DNA from: an uncultured Spirochaetota bacterium
Lineage (GTDB): Bacteria; Spirochaetota; Spirochaetia; SZUA-6; Fen-1364
DNA length: 64,000 nucleotides
Direction of reading: 5' to 3'
Assembly (NCBI GenBank): GCA_963745235.1
Contig: CAVUXE010000029.1
Span: 137,507-201,506, forward strand
Both the position numbers and the translations under genes were made by a program. The notes under the pieces were generated by a model. It ran no database searches. It was not told where the DNA came from and was given only the letters and a program-made list of their open reading frames with translations. How positions within the stretch are numbered: the stretch's first letter is position 1; each line of letters starts with the position of its first letter. Shown here piece by piece: positions 1,204-64,000 of this stretch.

Positions 1204-2715
1204 ATGGCAAAGCGTTCGGACGGGTACCTCCTGGGGTTCGACATCGGAAGCTCTTCCATAAAGGCGGCGCTGCTGGAAGCGGAGACCGGCAGGCTTGTTG
1301 CATCAGCATCATCGCCGAAAACCGAGCTCGCCATCTCGGCTCCCCGGCCGGGGTGGGCGGAACAGGACCCCGCCCTGTGGTGGGACAATGCCGTTGCCGC
1401 CGCCGCTGCTTTGAAGGCGGCCGCCGGAAAGGAGTACGGCGCCGTCGCGGCCATCGGCATCTCCTACCAGATGCATGGCCTGGTCGTCATGGACAAAGGC
1501 GGGAGGGTCCTTCGGCCCTCCATCATCTGGTGCGACAGCCGGGCGGTGGACCTGGGGGAACGGGCGTTCAGGGGGATCGGAGAAAAGACCTGCCTCTCGC
1601 GCCTCCTGAACTCACCGGGCAACTTCACCGCCTCCAAGCTCGCCTGGGTCAAGGAGAACGAGCCGGACGTGTTCTCCCGGGTCAGCACGTTTCTCCTCCC
1701 GGGGGATTGGGTTGCCTTCCGAATGACGGGGGAGGCCTGCACCACCACCTCGGGTCTCTCGGAGGGGGTGCTGTGGGACTTCACCACGGGCGGGAAGGCC
1801 GACGTGGTTCTTGACTGGTATGGCATCCCCGGCAATCTGGTGCCGGAGGTCCGCCCCAGTTTTTCGACGCAGGGGGAGCTGTCAACGGAAGCAGCGAACG
1901 CTCTCGGCCTGGCAAAAGGGATACCCGTCTCCTACCGGGCAGGGGACCAGCCGAACAACGCGTTTTCCCTGCGGGTGCTGGATCCCGGGGAAGCGGCCAC
2001 CACGGCCGGGACCTCGGGGGTCGTCTACGGCGTGGCGGGCAAGCCGTGCTACGACCGCCTCTCCCGCGTGAACACGTTCGTCCACGTGAGTCACACCGAG
2101 TCTGCGCCCCGCTACGGGGTGCTGCTCTGCGTCAACGGGACGGGAATTCTCAACAGCTGGATGAAACGCATCCTGGTTGGTGACAGCGGCGCCGTCTCCT
2201 ACGACCAGATGAACCGGGTTGCAGCCCAGGCCCCCATTGGCGCGGAAGGGGTGACGATCCTCCCCTTCGGCAACGGCGCGGAGCGAACGCTGGAAAACCG
2301 GACTATTGGCAGCTCCCTACTGGGGCTGGATTTCAACAGGCACGGCATCCCTCACCTGCTGCGCGCCTCCCAGGAGGGCATCGTTTTCGCTCTCCACTAC
2401 GGCTTGAAGATCATGCGGGACATGGGCACGGAGGCAAGGACGGTGCGCGCCGGCCATGCGAACATGTTCCTCAGCGCCATCTTCCGGGAGGCATTCTCGA
2501 CCGTGACCGGGGCTCGCGTGGAGCTGTACAACACTGACGGCTCGCAGGGCGCCGCGCGCGGCGCCGGGCTCGGGGCGGGCATGTACCCGAGCAGCAAGGA
2601 AGCCTTTGTCGGGCTGACGGCAGTCATGACGGTGGAGCCTGATCCCGCCAAGGGGCCCGCCTACCAGGAGGCATACGGGAGGTGGGAGCGCGCCCTGGAA
2701 GCTGCCATGCGATAG
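1204..2715 (+). CDS. xylB: Xylulokinase (FGGY carbohydrate kinase)
   Basis: GFDIGSSSIKA, ISYQMHGLV, IIWCDSRA, AGDQPNNA, AGTSGVVY motifs. Confidence 0.85.
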   Translation: MAKRSDGYLLGFDIGSSSIKAALLEAETGRLVASASSPKTELAISAPRPGWAEQDPALWWDNAVAAAAALKAAAGKEYGAVAAIGISYQMHGLVVMDKGGRVLRPSIIWCDSRAVDLGERAFRGIGEKTCLSRLLNSPGNFTASKLAWVKENEPDVFSRVSTFLLPGDWVAFRMTGEACTTTSGLSEGVLWDFTTGGKADVVLDWYGIPGNLVPEVRPSFSTQGELSTEAANALGLAKGIPVSYRAGDQPNNAFSLRVLDPGEAATTAGTSGVVYGVAGKPCYDRLSRVNTFVHVSHTESAPRYGVLLCVNGTGILNSWMKRILVGDSGAVSYDQMNRVAAQAPIGAEGVTILPFGNGAERTLENRTIGSSLLGLDFNRHGIPHLLRASQEGIVFALHYGLKIMRDMGTEARTVRAGHANMFLSAIFREAFSTVTGARVELYNTDGSQGAARGAGLGAGMYPSSKEAFVGLTAVMTVEPDPAKGPAYQEAYGRWERALEAAMR

Positions 2716-2727
2716 GCGGGGGCCGAC

Positions 2728-4350
2728 CTATCGGAGGGGAACGCCCGCGTTCAAGGGACTCTCTTTCTTGCCGGCCCCGATTATTTTCCGGCCGTTCATG
2801 AAGACGTAGTCGATGCCTTCAGGGGTGCGGTTCCCGTCCGGGGATGCCCTCACGTTCTCCCAATCCAGCACGACAATGTCCGCGGCCAATCCTTCCTTGA
2901 GCAGTCCGCGGTCACGGAGGTCAAACCTCTCCGCAACGGCCCCCGTCATCCTGCGGACGGCTTCCTCCAGAGGCAGGACCTTCTCCTCTCGTGAAACCTG
3001 CAGCGCCCGCACCAGCCCACAAAACGCCGAGGGGTTGTCTCCACCGAGGCGCTCAACCGCAGCCCCGGTCATGAAAAGGCAGGCCCGATGCCGCATGAGC
3101 TCCGTCAGCAGCTTGTCGTTTCCCATTTTCTGGCAGAGAAGACGCGCCCGACCGCCGCTCCTCCGCGCTATCTCGATCAGCGCATCAGAGGGGCTGAGCC
3201 GGCGAAGCCGCGCAATCTCCGACAGCGGCTTGCCGTTGTATTCCGCCATGTCCTGGGTCATCGTGTCGGTTATCCGTAGATCTGCCGCTGACATGGCAAG
3301 CTGTCTCCCGGATTTGCGGACTTCTTTGCGGAGAGTCCGCAACGCTTCGCCATCTTCGAATGCGGCCGCTCCCCTGGCGAGGAACCATGGTGACAGCGCC
3401 GTGCTGACACGGGTCACTGCTTCGTGGACGGCGCAAGTGTCGAACCTCACGTCCAATCCGTCGGTGAGGGCCTTGTCGATGAGTCGAAGAGCCGTCTCCG
3501 CGGTGCGCCAGGTTCGGGAGCCGAGAAACGCAAGGTGCGAGATCTGGAGCCTGACCCCCGTCTGTCGGGCAAGATCCAGCAGCTCCCGCAGCGCCGCGAT
3601 GTTGCTCGGTTCGCTGAACGAGCGCCGGGATCGTCCCGGGGCCTCGGCGCAAACGCTCCGCGGATGAACGGACAGGATCCTCCCGCGGTGCTTCACCAGG
3701 AGCGCAATCTCCTTCAGCTCCTCCGGGCGCGCAAAGAGCCCGGGCGCCAGGTGCAGTCCCACGGAAACCCCGCGGGCCCCCTGCTCCATCGCGATCTCCA
3801 GGAGGCGCAGCAGCTCCTTTGACTCGTAGGGATGAAGCGGGGACGGGTCCAGTCCGCGGATGGACGCTCGACTGGAGCCGTGCCCGGCCATCAGGGCGAG
3901 GTTGTGGCTTGTCCCCGAACCCTGGAGCCTCTCGAACAGCTCATCCACGGTGTCCCACTGGAGCGCCAGCTGACCGCTTGAAAACGGGTTGTCCGCCACC
4001 TGTTCCCGCCAACGTGAGCTTTCGCGCAGCCCGGCCGGCGCCCATCCGCAATTGCCGCCGATCACCGTCGTAATGCCCTGGGCCAGGAAGGGGTACCTCA
4101 GCTCGTCATGTCCCTTGAGCGGCAGGTGCCAATCCAGGTGTGAGTGCGCATCGATGAACCCGGGGGCCACCACCCGGTCGGTGCAGTCGATCATCACGCC
4201 GGTGGTTCGGATGGGGCGTGCGGAGATGCGATGCACGCGGCCGGCGCGGATGAGGAGGTTGCCGACAACCGGCTTGTCCCCTGTCCCGTCCACGATGAGG
4301 CCGTTTTTCAGCACCAGGTCCTGGTTTTCCCTGCCGGCATCCCGCTTCAT
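2728..4350 (-). CDS. N-acyl-D-amino-acid deacylase family amidohydrolase
   Basis: APGFIDAHSH, GITTVIGGNCG, DRGLLKEGLAADIVV, GIDYVFMNG. Confidence 0.8.
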   Translation of the reverse strand: MKRDAGRENQDLVLKNGLIVDGTGDKPVVGNLLIRAGRVHRISARPIRTTGVMIDCTDRVVAPGFIDAHSHLDWHLPLKGHDELRYPFLAQGITTVIGGNCGWAPAGLRESSRWREQVADNPFSSGQLALQWDTVDELFERLQGSGTSHNLALMAGHGSSRASIRGLDPSPLHPYESKELLRLLEIAMEQGARGVSVGLHLAPGLFARPEELKEIALLVKHRGRILSVHPRSVCAEAPGRSRRSFSEPSNIAALRELLDLARQTGVRLQISHLAFLGSRTWRTAETALRLIDKALTDGLDVRFDTCAVHEAVTRVSTALSPWFLARGAAAFEDGEALRTLRKEVRKSGRQLAMSAADLRITDTMTQDMAEYNGKPLSEIARLRRLSPSDALIEIARRSGGRARLLCQKMGNDKLLTELMRHRACLFMTGAAVERLGGDNPSAFCGLVRALQVSREEKVLPLEEAVRRMTGAVAERFDLRDRGLLKEGLAADIVVLDWENVRASPDGNRTPEGIDYVFMNGRKIIGAGKKESPLNAGVPLR

Positions 4351-7407: not shown

Positions 7408-8373
7408 ATGCAGATGCAGAACCGCATCGAGGCAATAGATCAGTACCGCGGGATAGCGATCATCCTCATGGTCATCGCAAACTACCTCTTCGATGTGACA
7501 ACCATACCTGGTTGGCTCAAGCATGCGCCGGACATCGGGCTCACCGTCATCGACCTGATAGCCCCGTTCTTCATATTCGCGATCGGGCTCACCTACGGCG
7601 CCTCGTACCGCGCCCGCGTTGAGCGCGACGGGGCGGCACGGACGTGGGGACACTTCCTGCGGAGATGGCTCGCGTTGATCGGCATCGGGGCCATCATCTC
7701 CGCCGGCGAGGTCCTGGTGGGCAAGAACGCGAGCCCCATCAGCTGGGGCGTGCTGCAGGCAATCGGCGTGGCCGGCATCGTCACCCTGCTCGTGATCCGC
7801 GTGCCGCCGCTGTGGCGCGCGCTCATCGCGCTGGTGATGCTTGCGGCCTACCAGCTCCTTCTGGACAACCTGTGGCTCTCCACCGTGCTGCACTCTGAGC
7901 ACGGCGGCATGGAGGGCGCCGTTGCCTGGTCAGCCATGCTCATACTCTCCAGCGTGGTTGCCGACGTGTGGCGGAGGAATGGTTCGAGCGAGCTCGGCGT
8001 TGCCTGGCCCAGCGCGGTGGCTCTTGCGGCCGGCCTCCTCCTGTCTCTCGTTGCTCCCATCAGCAAGAACCGCGTCTCAGCGAGCTACGTTCTGGTCAGC
8101 CTCGGGGCGAGCGGCCTTCTCTTTGCAGTTGTGCAGTTTGCTGTAAGCCGGCTGCGCTTCCGTCCCGCGTATCTCAGGTGGTGGGGAATCAATCCGCTCC
8201 TGCTGTACGTGATGCACTACCTGCTGCTTGCCCTGGTGGTCCTCCCGGACGCCCCCTGGTGGCACGTGCAGGCCTCCATTCCCCTTGTGGTGGCGCAGGC
8301 CGCGGGGATCATAGCCATTCTGAGTGTTGCCGCGTGGCTCCTCTCGCGACGGAAGCAGCCGTTCTCCCTGTAA
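7408..8373 (+). CDS. Heparan-alpha-glucosaminide N-acetyltransferase-like (DUF1624/DUF5009) membrane protein
   Basis: RIEAIDQYRGIAIILM, DLIAPFFIFAIG, WGVLQAIG, PISKNRVSASYVL. Confidence 0.75.
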   Translation: MQMQNRIEAIDQYRGIAIILMVIANYLFDVTTIPGWLKHAPDIGLTVIDLIAPFFIFAIGLTYGASYRARVERDGAARTWGHFLRRWLALIGIGAIISAGEVLVGKNASPISWGVLQAIGVAGIVTLLVIRVPPLWRALIALVMLAAYQLLLDNLWLSTVLHSEHGGMEGAVAWSAMLILSSVVADVWRRNGSSELGVAWPSAVALAAGLLLSLVAPISKNRVSASYVLVSLGASGLLFAVVQFAVSRLRFRPAYLRWWGINPLLLYVMHYLLLALVVLPDAPWWHVQASIPLVVAQAAGIIAILSVAAWLLSRRKQPFSL

Positions 8374-8374
8374 G

Positions 8375-8415
8375 CGCGCTTCCCTGGGCGCGTAGTCGCG
8401 CTTCCCTGGGCGCGT
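8375..8415. repeat. Two identical 19-bp GC-rich hairpin units in tandem between convergent genes
   Basis: cgcgcttccctgggcgcgt at 8375-8393 and 8397-8415. Confidence 0.8.
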
Positions 8416-9248
8416 CATGGCTTGCGGTGCTTCTCCATCCATGCAAGGACGAAGTCAGCCACTTTCTCCCTGTCCAGATCGTTGTGCAGCTCGTGTCTCC
8501 CGCCCTCCCAGACCTTCAGCGTGACGTCCCCGGAGAGACGCTCGGCAAAAGCGATGGCCTCCTTCGGGCTCACATGGTGGTCGTCGGTCCCCTGCATCAG
8601 GAGCAAAGGCAGCGGGAACCCGGTCTGACGCCTGATCCACTCACCTGCGCGAAGCAGCTCCGCCCCGAGGCGAACGCTGACTCCTTCCTGAAAAAGGGGA
8701 TCCTTCTTTGTCCGCTCAATGACCGCTGAATCCCGTGAGAGACTCTCCCAGGGTACCTCCGTCGTTATGATCGTCCTGGGAACGATCCGGGAGAGCACTT
8801 TGCCGCCTGCTGTCTTCAGCGGCGACAGGGGTGTCCCGGGAGCCAGCAGAGGACTTGTGGCAATGACGCCGTCAAGCGACGGGGAGCGGCGCAGCACGTA
8901 GTACAACACCTGTTCTCCGCCGAGACTGTGACCGTACAGGAAAAGAGGCATGCGGGGAAAACGAAGCCTGGTCTGCTCGATGTGCCTGTCGATGTCTCCC
9001 ATCAGGTCCTCGAATGACGAGGCGTAAAGCCGTGGCCCTCCCGTCCTGCCGTGGCCGCGCAGGTCGAACGCGCTGAGCGCGTAGCCCGCCGCCGGCAGCC
9101 TTTCCACCAGCAGGGGGTAGCGGCCCGAGTGCTCTCCCAACCCGTGCACCAGCGCGACCACCGCCTTCGGCGTTCCCTCCGGCGCCCATGACTGCGCGAA
9201 CATCTCGAGACCGTCCGCCGCCTTCCATGAATACTCCGCATGTTTCAT
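8415..9248 (-). CDS. Lysophospholipase-like alpha/beta hydrolase
   Basis: VHGLGEHSGRY, DLRGHG, GHSLGG nucleophile, HELHND; likely start MKHAEYSW at 9248. Confidence 0.9.
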   Translation of the reverse strand: MKHAEYSWKAADGLEMFAQSWAPEGTPKAVVALVHGLGEHSGRYPLLVERLPAAGYALSAFDLRGHGRTGGPRLYASSFEDLMGDIDRHIEQTRLRFPRMPLFLYGHSLGGEQVLYYVLRRSPSLDGVIATSPLLAPGTPLSPLKTAGGKVLSRIVPRTIITTEVPWESLSRDSAVIERTKKDPLFQEGVSVRLGAELLRAGEWIRRQTGFPLPLLLMQGTDDHHVSPKEAIAFAERLSGDVTLKVWEGGRHELHNDLDREKVADFVLAWMEKHRKP

Positions 9249-9305
9249 CAGGGAACCCCCTTTTCCGGATGCCTCGGATTCTACTATGATCCGACCAGGT
9301 CCGCC

Positions 9306-10074
9306 ATGCGAAATATCATCACCGTTGCCATTGACGCCGCCCGGGAGGCCGGGACATTTCTCCGTGAAAGCCATCACACGTCGCTCACCGTGGAGACCAA
9401 GGAAGACAGGAGCCTCGTGACCAACGTTGATCGCGAAGCGGAACGGATCATCGTCTCACGCATCGAAGCCGCCTTTCCGTCCCATGACATCATCGCGGAG
9501 GAGAGGGGACAGACCTCGCGGGGCTCGGACCACTGCTGGGTGATCGATCCCATGGATGGCACTCACAACTACATCCGGGGGATGGGGATCTATGGCGTCT
9601 CGATCGGCGTGATCCAGCGGGGCTCCTTCGTTGCCGGGGCCATCTTCATACCGGAGACCGATGAGATGTATGGCGCAGAACAGGGGGCGGGATCCTTCCG
9701 AAACGGGAACCGCATCCACGTCTCCCGGCGATCCGACCTTTCCGCCTGTACCATGGCTTTCGATTCCGAGCTTCGCCAGGAGACGCCTCGCAAGCTGCGC
9801 GTGCTGGGAGAGCTCTGCCCGCGCATTTTCAACATACGGCTTTTCGGCTCCACGGCCAGAAACCTTTCCCACATCGCGGAAGGAGTCCTTGACGGGGTGA
9901 TCGAGTTCTCGGACAAGCTCTGGGATTTTGCCGCCGGCGCCGTGATCGTCACCGAGGCGGGAGGACGGATGACCGCGCTTCGACGGAGCGGCGCTGACCC
10001 CCGGTGATACCGCCTACATCGCGTCCAACGGGCTCGTCCATGAATCGCTTGAAAGAATCGCCAACTCTGCATAA
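9306..10074 (+). CDS. Inositol monophosphatase family protein (one frameshift near 9980)
   Basis: WVIDPMDGTHNY and WDFAAG motifs; C-terminal IASNGLVH lies in a shifted frame ending TAA 10074. Confidence 0.85.
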
Positions 10075-10123
10075 AGATGCGCGGCGCTCAAGTTTACAAG
10101 CAGCGCCGGGATGTGGATTTTTC

Positions 10124-10152
10124 TTGCGCTGAATGATTTTCGGGAATAGAAT
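10124..10152 (+). promoter_or_regulatory. Putative sigma70 promoter of the gdhA operon
   Basis: TTGCGC-17bp-TAGAAT, followed by AAGGAG RBS before ATG 10181. Confidence 0.5.
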
Positions 10153-10180
10153 GGCGCATCCACCAAAGGAGATGCTCAAC

Positions 10181-11431
10181 ATGGCGGAACTCAATCCATT
10201 CAAGATCGCCCAGAAACAGCTGGACACCGCGGCCGCCACGCTCGGCCTCGACGAAGGCGACCCACCAGCTCCTGCGCTGGCCCCAGCGCGAGCTGCAGGT
10301 GACCTTTCCCGTTCGCATGGACGACGGGTCCGTCAGGATCTTCCACGGCTACCGCGTGCAGTACAACGGCGCGCGCGGCCCCACCAAGGGCGGGCCTGCG
10401 CTGGCACCCGGATGAGACCATCGACACGGTGCGCGCGCTTTCCGCGTGGATGACGTGGAAGACGCGCGGTCGTCGACCTGCCCCTGGGCGGAGCCAAGGG
10501 CGGCGTGACCTGCAACCCCAAGGAGCTGTCCACCGCGGAAAAGGAGAGACTGGCCCGGGCGTACATCCGGGCCGTCGGACGGTTCCTCTCCGAAACGCAG
10601 GACGTCCCGGCTCCCGACGTGTACACGACACCCGAGATCATGGCGTGGATGATGGACGAGTACGAGACGATCATCGGCCAGCACAGCCCCGGCGTCATCA
10701 CGGGCAAGCCCATCCCGCTGGGCGGGTCCGCGGGCCGCGGGGACGCCACCGCGCGCGGCGGCATCTACGTTACCCGCGAGGCGGCAGCGAAGCTGGGCCT
10801 GGACCTCAAGGGCAAGGCAATGGCCATCCAGGGCTTCGGGAACGCCGGCCAGTACGCCGCGCTCCTGGGCTCGGAGATCCTCGGGCTGAAGCTCGTGGCG
10901 GCCTCGGATTCCCAGGGCGGCGTGTACAACGCCAAGGGCCTGGACGCGAAGGCCCTGGTGGACTACAAGCAGAAAACCGGCAGCCTGTCGGGGTTCCCCG
11001 GCGCGGAGAGCATCTCCAACGAGAAGCTCCTGGAGCTGGACGTGGCGGTGCTCTTCCCCGCGGCCCTGGAGAACATGATCACGGACATGAACGCGGCGCG
11101 CATCAAGGCGAAGATCGTCTGCGAGCTGGCCAACGGGCCCACGACCCCGGAGGCGGACGCCGTCCTCTACAAGAACAAGGTGTTCGTCATCCCCGACTTC
11201 CTCGCCAACGCGGGCGGCGTCACGGTGTCCTACTTCGAGCAGGTGCAGAACGCCTACAACTACTACTGGAACCTCGACCTGGTCTACAGCAGGCTGGATG
11301 AGAAGATGACCAAGGCGTTCCACGACGTGTACGCGATGCACGAGCGGCACAAGGTGAACATGCGCGAGGCTGCCTACCTCGTCTCCGTGAGCAGGGTGGC
11401 GGAGGCCTGCAAGCTCCGCGGGTGGGTGTGA
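10181..11431 (+). CDS. gdhA: Glu/Leu/Phe/Val dehydrogenase, glutamate dehydrogenase (three +1 frameshifts near 10256, 10396, 10465)
   Basis: Rejoined: [71 protein letters not shown]. Confidence 0.9.
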
Positions 11432-59271: not shown

Positions 59272-60723
59272 GGGTGGGAATTCGGGAATAGGCAATCATA
59301 GTTGACATTCAAGCGACGGCCGACTCCGGAGTCCATCTCTGCGGCTGCGGCTGGAAGTAGCGGTGGAGATTGCCGTTGAGCTTCTCCACCCTGACCCTGA
59401 GCACTCGGACGTTATCTTGGCGTTTCCAGCGCATCCCACTCCCCTTGAAGCGCTTGGCCACAACGAACTTGCAGCTTCCTTCTACCAGCCCACTGCCAAT
59501 CGGGAAGCCCTGCGCCCTGTAGGTGTCGTAGTCCATGCGAGACAAGTTGTTTTTGAAGTAGTTGATCTCCCTGATCGCTGAGTCCCGCTGGGCAAGGGTG
59601 TCGGCCCTGCGCCGCATCTCCTGGGTGACCTGCAAGGCCTGTCCGTCCAACAGCATGCGCGCCCATCGAGCATGAGTCACCTTTGCTTTGCGTTGATCGG
59701 TAAGAAGGCTGCAGAAAACTCCAAGATGCTCACTGGCGTGATAGAAATCCAGGATTCCCACAGAGCCGGGGAAGTTTGTCTGTTGCAGTTCCCAGTTGGT
59801 GTGAGCCCCATCGGCCAAGAACACAAGTTTCTTGGCGAAGTGTTGACCCATGGCCAGAGCTGCTCGTCCCGCGTAGATATCAAACTCTTGGTGCTGGCCA
59901 TAGCGAGCCCCTGTCCACCGATCGACTTCTTTTCCTTCGTGAATCTTCTGCACGACGACCACGTTGCATTCTTTCCAATCCGTGGGTTGCTTCAGGCTTT
60001 CACGCCCACGGAGGCCCTTCTTTTCCAGGATTTGAGGGCTGATGGTCCCGTCAACTTCCACTACCATCAACTCGCAGGGTTTCTGCCCCCGTTGAGCCGA
60101 GATCATCGCGTAGGGATTGTCCGGGATGCGCTCTCCAACGGCCTCGGTATTACGCTGCACCGCCGTGGCACTCACGGCAAATCCCAGCGCCTCCCCCAGC
60201 AGATTCGCCGCCCGAGCAAAGGCCTCAGTGCCGCCGAAACTGGATAACAGATAGCTCATCAACGGGGAGTACCCCAAACAGCGATCCAATCCCAGCTTCT
60301 CATCCAGCGGAATCCACCCTCCCGCCTCTGTGACAAACTTGTAGCACCGTCGCGGCAGCACTACCTCTCCGCCAAACCGATTGAGAAACCGCAGATTGCG
60401 TTTGCCCGAGTACACCGCCCTACGTTCCCCGACGCGAAGGCTGTTTTCAATGGTCGGTTCCTGCACTCCATGCAAAATCTCTTCCTCCAAGGCTCGCCCC
60501 AGTTCATAGATGAACTGCAAGATCCGCTCTTCCACCTGCTCAAAGGTGCATTTGCCCAAGTTCAGACCCTCGGCAAGTTCCTTGACCAGGATCTGGCTGC
60601 GCGGTAGAACATCAGTGATTTCCATGGCCTATCTCCCCTCCCTAAAAAGGAATCAGCAAGGTGGAGATAGGCTTTTTTCTTCAAAAACTCAATGACAAAA
60701 AACCCGTTCTTGAAATCGCACCC
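59272..60723 (-). mobile_element. Insertion sequence, ISKra4/ISLre2-like
   Basis: Imperfect terminal IRs gggtgggaattcgggaa (59272) and gggtgcgatttcaagaa (reverse complement, ending 60723), 13/17 match, enclosing a transposase. Confidence 0.8.
59309..60625 (-). CDS. Transposase (ISKra4/ISLre2, UPF0236-like DDE)
   Basis: VEVDG, FLADGA..NW, LDFYHASEHL, PIGSGLVEGSCK..V.KRFKGSGMRW. Confidence 0.9.
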   Translation of the reverse strand: MEITDVLPRSQILVKELAEGLNLGKCTFEQVEERILQFIYELGRALEEEILHGVQEPTIENSLRVGERRAVYSGKRNLRFLNRFGGEVVLPRRCYKFVTEAGGWIPLDEKLGLDRCLGYSPLMSYLLSSFGGTEAFARAANLLGEALGFAVSATAVQRNTEAVGERIPDNPYAMISAQRGQKPCELMVVEVDGTISPQILEKKGLRGRESLKQPTDWKECNVVVVQKIHEGKEVDRWTGARYGQHQEFDIYAGRAALAMGQHFAKKLVFLADGAHTNWELQQTNFPGSVGILDFYHASEHLGVFCSLLTDQRKAKVTHARWARMLLDGQALQVTQEMRRRADTLAQRDSAIREINYFKNNLSRMDYDTYRAQGFPIGSGLVEGSCKFVVAKRFKGSGMRWKRQDNVRVLRVRVEKLNGNLHRYFQPQPQRWTPESAVA

Positions 60724-60812
60724 CCTACGCTTGACGGCGCAAGTAAATTGATATATGAAAGCGATGACTTGGGCGGCCGATTATTGGAGCAGGAGAGGAG
60801 GTCTTGGCCGCA

Positions 60813-61214
60813 ATGAGCGGAAAGTGTAATGCTCTCCTGATGGCGGACCGCGTCATCAGAGAGGACAACGGCAAACGCGGGATCATCGGATCCTTCAACA
60901 CGTTCAATTTTCCGACCTTCCCTTTCACTGCGCCGCCGTTCCTCGTCTACGCAAACCTCGAAGACTTTGCTGGTGATCACGAGTTTTCTGTTACCATAGC
61001 TCGCGAGGGTGCTGAGCTTGTCGTGTTTTCAGCGGGTGGAGAGATACACTTTGAGGACGAAAATCGAGAGGCTGAGATCGTCGTTCCTGCTTTTGGAGTT
61101 ACCTTTCCCAAAGAGGGCAGCTATAATCTGATTCTCAGGGTGGGGAACGGCCAGTACGGTTCAAGAAGGATTATTGTGAACAGATTGTCCGTCCCGCAGA
61201 TCGGAGGTACATGA
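60813..61214 (+). CDS. DUF6941-like beta-sandwich protein
   Basis: LLMADRVIREDNGK..IIG.F..F.FP.FP...FPKEGSY pattern; start 60804 or 60813. Confidence 0.65.
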   Translation: MSGKCNALLMADRVIREDNGKRGIIGSFNTFNFPTFPFTAPPFLVYANLEDFAGDHEFSVTIAREGAELVVFSAGGEIHFEDENREAEIVVPAFGVTFPKEGSYNLILRVGNGQYGSRRIIVNRLSVPQIGGT

Positions 61215-61414
61215 TGTCAGACTCGGCACTCGTGATGGGCACCATCTACAATCCCCACGATTCGTCGGCGGAGTCTGCATTTGCGGCAAACAACGCTCAG
61301 GAGATCGTGATCGAGCCGCCCACTTTGGGCAAAGAGATAATGCTGGCATCAGAGAAGTCCCTCGCATCGGTTTGGATGACCACCGACGAAGAGGAGGCTT
61401 GGAAGGATCTATGA
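61211..61414 (+). CDS. Putative antitoxin (DUF2281-like C-terminal motif)
   Basis: LASEKSLASVW...EEEAWKDL tail typical of MazF-associated antitoxins; GGAGG RBS; ATGA overlaps on both sides. Confidence 0.7.
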   Translation: MMSDSALVMGTIYNPHDSSAESAFAANNAQEIVIEPPTLGKEIMLASEKSLASVWMTTDEEEAWKDL

Positions 61415-61728
61415 ACAAGGGAGAGGTCGTCGTCGTCCCCTTTCCCTTCTCTGATCTGTCGTCTGCAAGGAATCGCCCGGCCTTGGTGCTGATCGATCTC
61501 CCCGGGTCAGACGCAGTTCTGGCCGCCATCACTTCCACGCGTAGCGAGCCGCACGCGATTGTCCTCGAGGAGAAAGACTTCCAGCACGGGGCGCTATCGC
61601 ATGCGTCTTACATTCATCCCGCCAAGTTATTCACTTTCCAAAAGAGCCTCATCCGCAAAGTTGTTGGCAGGGTCACTGAAGCAAAGCGGAAGGAAGTTGT
61701 CGCGAAGATTGTCTCCCTTCTGGCATAA
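61411..61728 (+). CDS. mazF: PemK/MazF family toxin
   Basis: KGEVVVVPFPFSD, RPALVL, AITS, VG.V. Confidence 0.9.
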   Translation: MNKGEVVVVPFPFSDLSSARNRPALVLIDLPGSDAVLAAITSTRSEPHAIVLEEKDFQHGALSHASYIHPAKLFTFQKSLIRKVVGRVTEAKRKEVVAKIVSLLA

Positions 61729-61765
61729 AGGCTCGGTAAGACAAGCGGACAGTCATCATGTTGGA

Positions 61766-61797
61766 GCCCCCGGGATGATACCCGGGGGTATTCTTTC
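61766..61797 (+). terminator. Terminator after the TA operon
   Basis: gcccccggg-atgata-cccgggggt followed by attctttc. Confidence 0.6.
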
Positions 61798-61862
61798 CTG
61801 CTGCACAAGGGAGGACGTGGGATACTGCAACTCGTTCATTAAAGCCGAAAGTGTGACAGCTC

Positions 61863-62200
61863 ATGAAAAGAGTCATCGCGACCACTATGGGCTATTTTTT
61901 GCGCCAGCATTGCACGTGCGCAGCAATGGCACGTTGTGGAAAACAAAGTTCCTTTCAAGGACACTTCTGGAGTCATGTTCGGAACGCAGGCAACGAACGG
62001 AAAGGGAGTCCACGGAGATCCAGTCGAGCCTGTAATCCGATTGTCCGGAAGCAGTTCTGACCTTCTGATAATCTGGCATTCCTTCATTACCACGGACAAA
62101 ACGGCCACCATGCTGCTAAGAGTCGACAAGGATGAGCCCGCCGAGGAGTCTTGAAGTCTTTCGACTGACCAGAAGGCTACCGTGTCTTTCAACGAGAAGG
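61863..62200 (+). pseudogene. Degraded gene for a small secreted protein
   Basis: MKRVIATT..AIFCASIARAQQWHV signal peptide broken by a frameshift; in-frame TGA at 62152-62154 followed by SLSTDQKAT; 3' end approximate. Confidence 0.45.
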
Positions 62201-62310
62201 ATCGTTCCGCGTCATGGCAATTCAGCCAGGGTTCCGCATCATCGCAAGACAACGAAGCGAGCAGCGCCCCGCGAGGCCGAGGCGCGCTCTGGAGCGTTTG
62301 GGATGAGGAA

Positions 62311-63348
62311 CTAGAAGTGAAACGTGTACGAGACTTTCACCGAGGGGTCGAAGGTTGGGTTCACATTTGTAAGTCCGTCGGTGTTCGAGTCGTCGTAGTT
62401 GTGGATCTTGAATACAGCTTCCACATAAAAAGGTCCCGTAGCATAGATGATTCCGGGATAGAGACTGGATCCCAGCGCTTTGGCGGAACCGGAGTGGCCT
62501 CCGTAAAAGGCGGAGCCCGGAGTGCTTCCATTGGGAACGTTCTGGTAAGTGAATAAAGATGCTCTAAAATATGCCTTGAGGCCGGGAACGCCTATGCTTG
62601 TGAAGTCAAACGTCAACTTGGGATATGTATAGAGACGCAGGTTATACCCCGCATCGCTGAACGAAGGGGTTGTGCTCCCCTGGTCGGAAAAATAAACGGC
62701 TTCCAGCACATCGAGCTGCCAGGGTCCGTAGATAAGGCTCACTTGCGGATTTACATCATACAACCACGCTGGAGAGAACCCGATTTCAGCGCTCACGGAG
62801 AATACCAGTGCCGTGGTTTTGTCGAAAGAGAGCTTGTATGCGATATTCTCGTAGTTTGTAAAGAGAAAAGTGTTCATCCCGCTCCCAAAGAAAGTCCCAA
62901 GAGAGATCCCTTTGTAGGCGTAGTCCATGAGGTATTTGATCTCTGCGTAGGCGGGATCATTTGTCGCGTCAGTGCCAATGAAATACAAAGGGAAGCTGAC
63001 ACGCACCGTCAAAGGCCCGTAGAGAAGGTCTACAAAAGGTTCCGCTCGGGCAAAGTTCACAAAGGAAGGGGAAATGGTCCCCATCATGTCTTCTGCACGC
63101 AGGCCAAGCCTCAGTGTCGTGGAATCATTTGGCTTGAGTGAGTAATAGCCGTTGACATAGGGGTCCGGGACCAGATTCAGATTGCTCGTGATTGCCGTGG
63201 CGGCCCCCGGCTTTTGCTGCGCGGAGGAGAAGGCGTTGAGTGCCGCGCCGAGAGCGCCGACTTCCAGCGTGATTCCCTCCGCGAAAGCAGCAAACCCAAC
63301 TGCGGGAACGAGAAGAATCGTCACAACAATAAGACGCAAGAGTTTCAT
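62311..63348 (-). CDS. Hypothetical exported protein, probable outer-membrane beta-barrel
   Basis: Signal peptide MKLLRL...AAFA, Tyr/Phe-rich amphipathic strands, C-terminal VKVSYTFHF; AAGGAG RBS. Confidence 0.7.
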   Translation of the reverse strand: MKLLRLIVVTILLVPAVGFAAFAEGITLEVGALGAALNAFSSAQQKPGAATAITSNLNLVPDPYVNGYYSLKPNDSTTLRLGLRAEDMMGTISPSFVNFARAEPFVDLLYGPLTVRVSFPLYFIGTDATNDPAYAEIKYLMDYAYKGISLGTFFGSGMNTFLFTNYENIAYKLSFDKTTALVFSVSAEIGFSPAWLYDVNPQVSLIYGPWQLDVLEAVYFSDQGSTTPSFSDAGYNLRLYTYPKLTFDFTSIGVPGLKAYFRASLFTYQNVPNGSTPGSAFYGGHSGSAKALGSSLYPGIIYATGPFYVEAVFKIHNYDDSNTDGLTNVNPTFDPSVKVSYTFHF

Positions 63349-63595
63349 GAGGGCTCCTTTTTTCAGAAAGCTTTGCCAAGAGAGTTCTTGTTGCCCGACC
63401 ATAAGCAACTATGAGCCGGAGTCGATCGTTGCTCGGGACCAAATAGCTTCGTCTGCTTGCCGGGCGATCAAACCAGGACTTGTGACGGGCGATCAGGTAC
63501 GTCGAAGAATTTAACTTTGCATGCACGGCATTCAGGACTTCCTCCTTGAAACTTTGGATAAGGAATCCCCTCGAATGCCAGCATGAAGGGAGGCA

Positions 63596-63694
63596 GGTCC
63601 CCTTTCCACGCTGGGAGGCAATCCAGTTTCCCGGATTACCCTACCGCCTTGAGGTCCGTGGCAATTCGCTTTAGAACGACGAGGTCGGGGATTG
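63596..63694 (-). ncRNA. Moco/Wco (molybdenum/tungsten cofactor) riboswitch, P3-less variant
   Basis: Minus strand UCCCCGA...CUAA...CACGG...AGGGUAAUCCGG-GAAA-CUGGAUUGCCUCCC-AGCG-UGGAAAGGGGA; matches the Moco motif 3' half, GNRA-capped P4 and P1 pairing. Confidence 0.8.
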
Positions 63695-63699
63695 GCAAC

Positions 63700-63728
63700 A
63701 TGCTACACTCGCGATTGTTGCCTGTCAA
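63700..63728 (-). promoter_or_regulatory. Sigma70 promoter placing the TSS at the riboswitch 5' end
   Basis: TTGACA-17bp-TAGCAT on the minus strand. Confidence 0.65.
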
Positions 63729-64000
63729 CAATTTTTTCAGCAGTGACCATTGAACCGCAACCGACGCAATGTCCGAGAAACAGCAGGCAAGGACTCTGAC
63801 AAAATAAGGCCGCCCTCGCCATACGGGCGTTTGATGGCGAAAGGTGCGCGCGTGAGCGGGATGTCGCGGCTTCACGCGCAGAAAGTCGGCGGTCCGCGTG
63901 GCCAGCTCGCGGACACGATTCCAGAGTCCGTAGTACCCTTGAGCAGATACTGATTCTCTCTTACGCGCACTCAAAAACTTCCCAGAGGGAGAACATGACG

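Follow-up and report, generated by a model that had tools for sequence, protein, structure and literature searches.

We analyzed a 64,000-nucleotide (nt) stretch of DNA (the window; G000:C29:137507-201506, whose position 64000 is the end of contig C29) from an uncultured peat spirochaete. The source genome, G000, is a 5.85-Mb metagenome-assembled genome (MAG) with a completeness of 85.7% and a contamination of 5.9%. We found that a constrained molybdenum cofactor (Moco) riboswitch has recently been fused, by replacement of its former cargo, to the gene for a new OmpG-like outer-membrane channel, and that the fused unit belongs to a cassette that is duplicated and located in accessory DNA. The product may be a cofactor-repressed outer-membrane channel, possibly for tungstate or molybdate, and we consider this reading evenly balanced. 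We lean slightly toward control of the barrel by the switch; that the barrel is a route for tungsten or molybdenum (W/Mo) oxyanions seems doubtful. The features that carry the argument all lie on the minus strand:

63700..63728, minus strand: sigma-70-type promoter TTGACA-17-TAGCAT (10/12 matches)
63583..63702, minus strand: aptamer of the Moco/Tuco (tungsten cofactor) riboswitch class, P3-less form (RF01055, 61.5 bits)
63520..63585, minus strand: predicted expression platform, a 23-pair hairpin (RNAfold, -28.4 kcal/mol) that recurs in the fold of the whole leader
63511..63531, minus strand: 6-codon stub open reading frame (ORF) at the regulated start codon, reading MPCMQS and a stop
63361..63510, minus strand: spacer with no detectable constraint and no match outside the cassette
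62311..63348, minus strand: ORF for a 345-amino acid (aa) outer-membrane protein with its own Shine-Dalgarno sequence (SD), AAAGGAG, at 63360-63354
62257..62289, minus strand: GC-rich hairpin followed by GCUUCGUUGUCUU, a U-rich tail; likely terminator

We found that the aptamer is a full-length member of its class. In a cmscan of the whole window, the sole match above the gathering threshold was to the Moco RNA motif (RF01055) at 63702..63583 on the minus strand, with 61.5 bits against a cut-off of 36, an E-value of 2.5e-12 (1.3e-13 in a repeat scan) and coverage of model positions 1-135. An Rfam scan of positions 60600-64000 at E up to 1 gave no other RNA families. P1 is formed by UCCCC and GGGGA, P2 is present, and P4 has 11 pairs capped by GAAA. 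The core GCCUCCC...UGGAAAGG contains the CCUCCC...GGAAAGG core of RF01055. The columns of the P3 hairpin, the stem that distinguishes Moco RNAs from the proposed Tuco class, are deleted, which places the RNA in the P3-less subclass. The earlier note had called a P3-less Moco-motif RNA here from the letters alone, and the covariance model bears this out. RF01055 RNAs are expected before genes for Mo/W transport, cofactor synthesis or cofactor enzymes. Here, the next gene encodes a barrel of an unknown family.

The promoter was also part of the earlier note. The hexamer match that was cited for it is at chance level, as shuffled sequences contained a mean of 0.9 such sites per 2 kb. The evidence for it is instead positional. 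In 6/6 aligned riboswitch loci (four genomes and one metagenome contig), the bases TTGAC and TAG..T do not vary and lie equally far before P1, and the site is the only promoter-like sequence on the barrel strand between 62000 and 64000. Because the promoter columns are conserved at a fixed distance before P1, the likely start of transcription is near 63693, where the 5' strand of P1 lies.

Promoter, riboswitch, leader, ORF and terminator together form a 1.56-kb cassette (62180-63737, minus strand). G000 contains two copies, on contigs C29 and C35, and a third is on a metagenome contig (L016). The C29 and C35 copies are 93% identical in DNA over window positions 62180-63737, and the two loci are unrelated outside these limits; on the 5' side homology extends 9 nt beyond the -35 hexamer, and on the 3' side it takes in 131 nt after the stop codon and the terminator hairpin with them. 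The barrel paralogue of the C35 copy is 95% identical. The RF01055 scores are 66.8 bits for the C35 copy and 66.2 bits for L016, which has an upstream lipoprotein gene in common with the C35 copy. There is also a third, truncated barrel paralogue in G000 (G000:C99:220153-220623; L059 6153-6623, minus strand), a 156-aa ORF that is 74% identical over residues 1-147 and has no Moco RNA.

The divergence between the copies indicates that the ORF is under purifying selection and that the switch may still be in use. Between C29 and C35, dN/dS of the barrel ORF was 0.12 (dS 0.19), and 16/192 positions differed in the aptamer plus platform compared to 27/149 in the spacer, taken as 63510-63361 (Fisher p 0.008). 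For C29 and L016, dN/dS was 0.10 (dS 0.28), with 16/192 and 32/149 differences, respectively (p 0.0008), and for C35 and L016 it was 0.09 (dS 0.16), with 4/192 and 14/149. These three comparisons share branches and are not independent. By these counts, the divergence of aptamer and platform is about half that of the spacer, as expected of a switch that is still used, and the spacer looks neutral: its Jukes-Cantor distance between C29 and C35 was 0.21, near the dS of the ORF (0.19). Within the leader of this pair, 12/120 positions differed in the aptamer alone, 4/72 in the platform with the stub, and 0/15 in the SD and start of the barrel. All four differences in P4 (4/4) keep the pairing, and one of them is two-sided, from A-U to G-C.

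We noted that the 131 nt after the stop codon (window 62180-62310) are about 98% identical between the two copies (3 differences in ~150 nt), compared to a dS of 0.19 in the ORF. Gene conversion may explain this near-identical flank, or it may be a 3' element under constraint that includes the terminator hairpin.

We found that the leader has relatives in front of a different set of genes. The region from promoter to start codon was used in a DNA search of 92 genomes of the order and gave two matches outside G000 that lie on Moco aptamers. The match in G441 (contig C73) has 75% identity over query positions 65-222 and runs through the platform to the SD. The match in G409 (contig C86) has 80% identity over the aptamer. 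Three further matches were short (25-46 nt, E 7e-5 or weaker), and one of these lies inside the aptamer before an aldehyde dehydrogenase gene of G403 (L045). In both G409 and G441, the SD in common with the window opens a lipoprotein gene with CxxCH motifs, and homology to the window leader stops at the start codon. NF041762 identifies the G409 lipoprotein as a GEGP-motif dihaem protein (414 bits, cut-off 300). The next gene starts at the stop codon of the lipoprotein gene and codes for a Porin_O_P protein of 390 aa (30.6 bits, cut-off 20.9); after it come a GntR-type gene and a MoaA gene. G446, from another family of the order, has a P3-less Moco RNA (71.1 bits), a dihaem protein (431 bits) and a 430-aa Porin_O_P protein (33.2 bits, cut-off 20.9) that ends in Phe. 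The G441 copy of the dihaem operon is broken into several frames, and G104 has a dihaem and barrel pair with no riboswitch. Thus, a P3-less Moco RNA precedes the pair of a GEGP dihaem protein and a 390-453-aa barrel in three genomes of three families. The pairs are located as follows:

L056 (G409) 8039-10599: dihaem/barrel pair
L099 (G446:C132) 2927-279, minus strand: dihaem/barrel pair
L057 (G441:C73) 3990 onward: dihaem/barrel pair
L062 (G104:C27) 1363-4037: dihaem/barrel pair

Homology up to the SD indicates that promoter, aptamer and platform of the window derive from a dihaem/porin leader of this kind, whose cargo appears to have been replaced by an unrelated barrel. In G000, at 85.7% completeness, neither G409 protein has a detectable homologue, and a search with the NF041762 model gave no match. 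Another history, in which riboswitch, dihaem gene and the present barrel once formed a single operon from which the dihaem gene was deleted, is ruled out: the window protein as query found no barrel homologue in G409 or G441, and the gene after the dihaem gene is an unrelated Porin_O_P. The barrel itself is not a Porin_O_P (PF07396), as it has no Pfam match and aligned with the G409 Porin_O_P protein only at E 0.29 in BLASTP. The riboswitch lineage precedes Porin_O_P genes in G409 and G446 and the OmpG-like barrel here, and is therefore tied twice to outer-membrane channels; its placement before an OprO/P-family porin in two other genomes is new support for the general idea of the earlier note. 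Full-text searches for "GEGP" with "diheme" found no paper.

The G409 contig (L056, G409:C86; 12.7 kb) carries three P3-less Moco RNAs, at 3079-3200 (plus strand), 7828-7951 (minus strand) and 8039-8158 (plus strand), with 70.6-70.8 bits. Two of the three are back to back and divergent, 87 nt apart. The contig also carries genes for XdhC, YqeC, two aldehyde dehydrogenases, a GntR regulator and MoaA, and by its gene content is a dense cofactor regulon island.

In the window, the former start position appears to survive as the stub. Between aptamer and barrel ORF are 234 nt, and the SD (63547-63541) and ATG (63531) located there open nothing but the 6-codon ORF, which the earlier note missed. 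In both the C35 copy and L016, the stub is MPCMQG and stops at TGA. The equivalent SD position opens the GEGP dihaem lipoprotein gene in G409, G441 and G446, and we take the stub to be a remnant of the start of that former cargo.

The leader has the layout of the usual translational OFF switch, and the model of switching that follows is inferred from pairing potential. The platform hairpin buries the SD AAGGAGG (63547-63541) and the ATG at 63531, with UUCCUU paired to GAGGAA of the SD. Its 5' arm carries GGGGAUU, an alternative partner of the 5' strand of P1, AAUCCCC. The layout AAGGGGAU...GGAGG is common to the riboswitch leaders of the window, G441 and G409. The minimum free energy fold also pairs the 5' UUGCCA with a distant UUGGCAA close to the barrel SD; we dropped this pairing, as it is not kept in L016. 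We found no terminator-like site in the leader or spacer by scanning, and the tail after the 23-pair hairpin is not U-rich. The GC-rich hairpin at 62289-62257, past the barrel gene, is likely the barrel terminator.

The spacer is unrelated to the DNA upstream of the 86, 77 and 71% identical orthologues of the barrel, which rules out that the barrel kept its native promoter there. One RNA-library contig (run X10, 236 nt, no mismatch) spans 63592-63357, that is, platform, stub and spacer to 9 nt before the barrel start. As a single contig from one run, it is uninformative either way on the ORF and the 5' part of the aptamer, which it does not cover.

We found that the protein encoded downstream is a predicted 14-strand outer-membrane barrel. 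Residues 1-22 form a signal peptide (...AFA/EG), and the sequence ends in ...YTFHF with a terminal Phe. An AlphaFold2 model from a 41-sequence alignment (mean predicted local distance difference test score, pLDDT, 92.7; predicted template modeling score, pTM, 0.85) shows 14 strands, with residues 126-160 forming a helical insert between the fifth and the sixth. The general features of outer-membrane barrels are present: a Sec signal, alternating hydrophobic and polar faces in the 14 strands, and a C-terminal aromatic residue. In comparisons with VIA-align, the five top rows were OmpG (for 2wvp, Z 21.4, root mean square deviation 2.9 Å, 243 aligned), followed by CymA (Z 20.7). Foldseek gave OmpG rows with TM-scores of 0.62-0.66 on the target, and the nearest language-model clusters of an 86% identical homologue of the window protein were OmpG-family porins (score 0.96). 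FadL and TodX scored lower (Z 16-18), in alignments that begin near chain residue 41. A FadL/TodX-type channel with an N-terminal hatch is ruled out: strand 1 of the model starts at residue 23, directly after the signal peptide, so no residues are left for a hatch.

At the level of sequence, the family has no name. The window protein has no Pfam and no NCBIfam match, and of 41 family members 0/41 had a meaningful Pfam E-value, with none matching PF09381 even at E up to 10. A family profile searched against the sequences in the PDB found no porin and no usable match. A collection of 5.8 billion sequences contained 61 family proteins at E <= 0.001, all unnamed or "hypothetical" and, among the hits seen, only from Spirochaetia; eight of 401 sampled genomes of the class have the family, G000 included. 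The homologues come from sources with names such as "Spirochaetia bacterium", in DNA from soil, peat and sediment metagenomes. The earlier claim of an outer-membrane beta-barrel of an undescribed family is thus upheld, and from the modeled structure we assign the protein with high confidence to an undescribed Spirochaetia family of OmpG/CymA-like 14-strand barrels.

We found that the pairing of riboswitch and barrel is young. All fetched homologue loci that included the 5' end of the gene and upstream DNA were scanned with Rfam at E <= 0.1, giving 20 distinct loci; L018 (12 nt of upstream DNA only) and L014 (C-terminal half only) were left out of this count. A Moco RNA was present at 3/20: the window, the C35 copy and L016. 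The closer loci with no Moco RNA were L007/L092 (86% identity), L093 (83%), L017 (77%) and L026 (71%). Those at middle distance were L008/L095 and L022/L094 (56%), L021, L025 and L055/L098 (54%), and L096 (53%). The distant ones were L009/L097 (46%), L015 (46%, partial), L010 and L011 (39%), L012 (34%) and L013 (25%, doubtful); the C99 fragment also has none. The three riboswitch-linked genes group in a single clade (support 100/98) in a maximum-likelihood tree built from 15 of the proteins, and this clade is nested in a subfamily (98/99) whose other members have unrelated neighbors, including a PfkB kinase, an aldo-keto reductase, a methyl-accepting chemotaxis protein (MCP) and a STAS protein. 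Because only 3/20 loci carry the riboswitch and these form one clade, the pairing is young, and a single gain followed by duplication accounts for its distribution. The C35 copy and L016 are sisters (99/96), and the duplication is therefore older than their split. Just downstream of the 86% orthologue in G353 is a group II intron D1-D4-like match (L007 1336-1458, minus strand, equivalent to L092 1830-1952, plus strand), with 43 bits (gathering threshold 49) and E ~2e-6.

The sister subfamily (53-56% identity; support 85/86) has a different setting, as 4/5 of its loci are clearly beside phosphorus-uptake genes:

L096: PhnC and PhnE neighbors
L055/L098: GDPD with PhnW and PhnX neighbors
L008/L095: GDPD neighbor
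L022/L094: PstA 2 kb away
L021, the fifth locus: ABC ATPase fragment of unclear type

This context hints at a channel family for tetrahedral oxyanions or phosphorus compounds.

The G000 genome contains three Moco RNAs, on C29, C35 and C44. The C44 copy is also P3-less and lies 39 nt before a TupA-like gene (233.5 bits; best match, below the 400-bit equivalog cut-off), which is followed by a permease gene. G000 also has an AOR-family gene (396 bits). In family f1, we found 20 Moco matches from 13/21 searched genomes. Eleven of the 20 precede TupA-like genes, including nine of 134-205 nt (L035, L036, L037, L038, L039, L040, L041, L044 and L046) that are P3-capable as judged by length only. The others precede ModA (1), aldehyde dehydrogenases (2), a shikimate-dehydrogenase-like gene (1), a dihaem gene (1), the barrel (2) and an aminotransferase-like gene 496 nt away (1), and one abuts a contig end. 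The long matches before TupA-like genes seem to fit poorly with a simple rule in which P3 indicates Moco and its absence Tuco. The earlier note had read the absence of P3 as pointing to tungsten. We do not retain this step, and the ligand cannot be assigned as Moco or Tuco, because G000 also has bis-PGD molybdoenzyme-family genes and a ModA-like gene.

If the barrel is regulated, we envision the following sequence of events. Binding of the cofactor would close P1 (UCCCC/GGGGA), the 23-pair hairpin would then bury the leader SD and AUG, and ribosomes would not load on the leader. The untranslated leader would yield less full-length mRNA, through Rho-type premature termination or decay. We place the effect at the level of mRNA because the leader has no terminator, the spacer is only mildly C-rich and the barrel SD is predicted to be largely open. 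When cofactor is scarce, the 5' AAUCCCC would pair with GGGGAUU and the leader would be translated. The channel would then be made along with the riboswitch-controlled TupA-like transporter, and more of a small solute, most plausibly tungstate or molybdate, would cross the outer membrane. Co-transcription, coupling of leader and barrel, and the substrate are each predictions from the DNA. In favor of co-transcription, the native upstream DNA of the barrel is gone, no other promoter-like site is present on the strand, the duplicated unit begins at the riboswitch promoter, and the RNA-library contig extends from the platform through the spacer. In favor of a W/Mo substrate, the TupA-like transporter of the same genome is under the same class of riboswitch, and an AOR-family gene is present. 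The link of the riboswitch lineage to a phosphate-porin-family protein in two other genomes and the phosphorus-uptake genes beside the sister subfamily point the same way.

Several observations weigh against this reading. The earlier note had the riboswitch driving the barrel. A genuine switch does lie before the barrel gene, but its platform governs the 6-codon stub and not the barrel, which has a strong SD of its own (mean unpaired probability 0.59 in the folded leader), and the barrel could therefore be translated independently of the switch. For this reason, its regulation is a prediction: the regulated SD and AUG open the stub, which is followed by the spacer and then by the barrel SD. 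No U-tract follows the hairpin, the spacer is only mildly C-rich (C/G up to 1.4), and no termination mechanism is visible in the sequence. The RNA evidence is one contig from a single run, with possible DNA carry-over. Gene conversion could account for part of the low divergence of aptamer and platform, as the 3' flank is ~98% identical. A Moco RNA is absent from 17/20 homologue loci, the 86% and 83% orthologues included, and none of these 17 has Mo/W neighbor genes, an outcome that the earlier note had listed among those that would refute it. The phosphorus neighbors of the sister subfamily occur at 0/7 loci of the riboswitch-linked subfamily, and the bis-PGD-family and ModA-like genes of G000 blur the link to tungsten. 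Both OmpG and CymA conduct sugars or act as general channels. The net charge of the mature protein is -9, and a strand-parity heuristic that does not use coordinates places about 12 basic and 11 acidic residues in its lumen, where no Arg/Lys ladder is obvious. By the same estimate the lumen is also rich in Tyr, Ser and Asn; the modeled pore appears polar, with nothing that marks anion selectivity.

The main rival reading is that the leader is a hitchhiker or relic, an explanation that we think is probably not correct but must be taken seriously. A promoter-bearing dihaem/porin leader would have been fused to a general porin gene, the switch would gate only the stub, and output of the barrel would be essentially constitutive, with no tie to W/Mo. 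The regulated start opens nothing beyond the 6 codons, the barrel SD is ~170 nt downstream, the spacer evolves neutrally and the leader lacks a terminator. In addition, the 71-86% orthologues have ordinary, unrelated upstream DNA and neighbors (PfkB kinase, MCP, STAS protein, aldo-keto reductase), and the fold is that of non-specific or sugar channels. However, a relic would not be expected to diverge at about half the rate of the spacer or less in three comparisons, to keep pairing through all changes in P4, or to score 61-67 bits in all three copies after a dS of 0.16-0.28. The duplicated unit also spans the whole leader and not a shorter promoter fusion. Finally, loss of leader translation is an established way for other translational riboswitches to affect the message that follows.

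A cofactor-regulated channel could also carry a solute other than the metal, either a substrate of a W/Mo enzyme pathway (aldehydes or organic acids) or a phosphorus compound. Its gene would follow cofactor status, like the dihaem/porin pair and the aldehyde dehydrogenases of relatives. We regard this as improbable. It would fit the f1 Moco RNAs that precede aldehyde dehydrogenases (2/20), the shikimate-dehydrogenase-like gene (1) and the dihaem/porin pair (1), the dihaem/porin pair of G104 that has no riboswitch, the phosphonate and phosphate genes beside the sister subfamily, and a pore lining with no net positive charge. Yet the predicted OFF switch suits supply genes better than consumer pathways, neither cassette context contains a candidate pathway gene, and phosphorus neighbors are found at none of the seven loci of the riboswitch-linked subfamily. 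A chance match, or mis-assembly of two copies, can be dismissed as extremely unlikely: the promoter is 272 nt from the end of the window and contig, and the MAG is incomplete with some contamination, but the match has an E-value of 2.5e-12 with full-length model coverage, the two copies have diverged at 7% of sites and lie in different surroundings, a third copy is on an independent metagenome contig, and DNA contigs from several runs cover the cassette.

Both full copies of the cassette lie in accessory DNA, as the earlier note had proposed for this locus. The features next to them are:

Window 59309-60625: ISKra4-family transposase (221.5 bits), adjoining the C29 cassette
Window 60804-61214: DUF6941 gene, adjoining the C29 cassette
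Window 61211-61728: PemK/MazF-type toxin gene, adjoining the C29 cassette and overlapped by a 67-aa upstream ORF
L058 5966-7147: phage-type integrase gene (66.7 bits), 5.4 kb from the C35 copy
L005 664-733, plus strand, G000:C35: int-alpA RNA match downstream of the second cassette (39.5 bits against 35.8)

The 67-aa ORF that overlaps the toxin gene may encode the antitoxin. The int-alpA RNA and the integrase near the C35 copy suggest an integrated element. A search for repeats gave only short two-copy matches and no mobile-element ends of the cassette. One 45-nt match with 89% identity (window 63895-63939 and G000:C35:342691-342735) is close to both contig ends, and the C29 and C35 assemblies may break at a common repeat.

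Passage of tungstate and molybdate through the outer membrane is usually ascribed to general porins, and to our knowledge no dedicated, regulated outer-membrane component for them has been described. Our full-text searches found no paper that links a Moco riboswitch to an outer-membrane protein or porin. Searches on tungstate or molybdate with porins also gave no W/Mo outer-membrane channel, including in the accessible part of the Geobacter metallireducens genome paper (PMC2700814). As far as its accessible text goes, Regulski et al. 2008 (PMC2408646) report that 58/176 Moco RNAs lack P3 and link these to Tuco metabolism; in that text "membrane" occurs 0 times and a cargo encoding an outer-membrane barrel is not mentioned. 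The RNA described here resembles the P3-less Moco RNAs before tupA or moaA in its full-length model match and in P1, P2, P4 and GAAA cap, and the C44 copy likewise precedes a TupA-like gene. With the E. coli moaA Moco leader, as given in the same portion of PMC2408646, it shares an SD-sequestering platform. It differs from the P3-less RNAs described there in its barrel cargo, in the 6-codon stub at the regulated start and in that the absence of P3 cannot be taken here as a sign of tungsten specificity. The closest relative is the dihaem/Porin_O_P operon (G409, G446 and the decayed G441), whose leader is homologous from the promoter through the platform as far as the SD, with 75-80% identity in the aptamer. 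In contrast to that operon, the window has no dihaem gene, and its barrel is 14-stranded, OmpG-like and dissimilar in sequence.

Outer-membrane importers under riboswitch control are known, including a cobalamin riboswitch before BtuB and a thiamine pyrophosphate (TPP) riboswitch before a TonB-dependent receptor in Caldithrix abyssi (accessible part of PMC5317091). In the systems as described there, too, a cofactor-sensing leader precedes an outer-membrane uptake component. BtuB and the TonB-dependent receptors have 22 strands and import the cofactor itself, in contrast to the small passive channel of the window, for which the pterin cofactor is not expected as the solute. The barrel has the 14 strands and barrel geometry of the monomeric channels OmpG and CymA, but differs from them in its helical insert, its lack of a Pfam or PDB sequence match and its occurrence, in the hits seen, in Spirochaetia only. 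PhoE and OprP/OprO are phosphate-starvation porins, trimeric and 16-stranded with a basic ladder, that provide a nutrient-regulated route for tetrahedral oxyanions. The phosphonate and phosphate genes beside the sister subfamily recall these porins, but no basic ladder is evident in the window barrel.

If the leader proves to be a relic, the locus is a caution that a riboswitch before a gene does not alone assign the function of that gene. Otherwise, one riboswitch lineage would offer two candidates for a regulated outer-membrane route: the OmpG-like barrel of the window and, in relatives, the Porin_O_P porin that is paired with the dihaem protein. More speculatively still, and on balance we doubt it, a single P3-less riboswitch lineage of peat and soil spirochaetes might be dedicated to outer-membrane permeability, serving an OprO/P-type porin and a dihaem protein in several genera and re-used here for an OmpG-like barrel. 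These would be the first W/Mo outer-membrane routes regulated by cofactor feedback, with a gene 170 nt downstream controlled through a vestigial leader ORF. The locus is a dated snapshot of cargo replacement, in which aptamer and platform were kept, the start codon was cut back to a stub and a new gene arrived with its own ribosome-binding site, and it should be useful for learning how translational riboswitches act at a distance.

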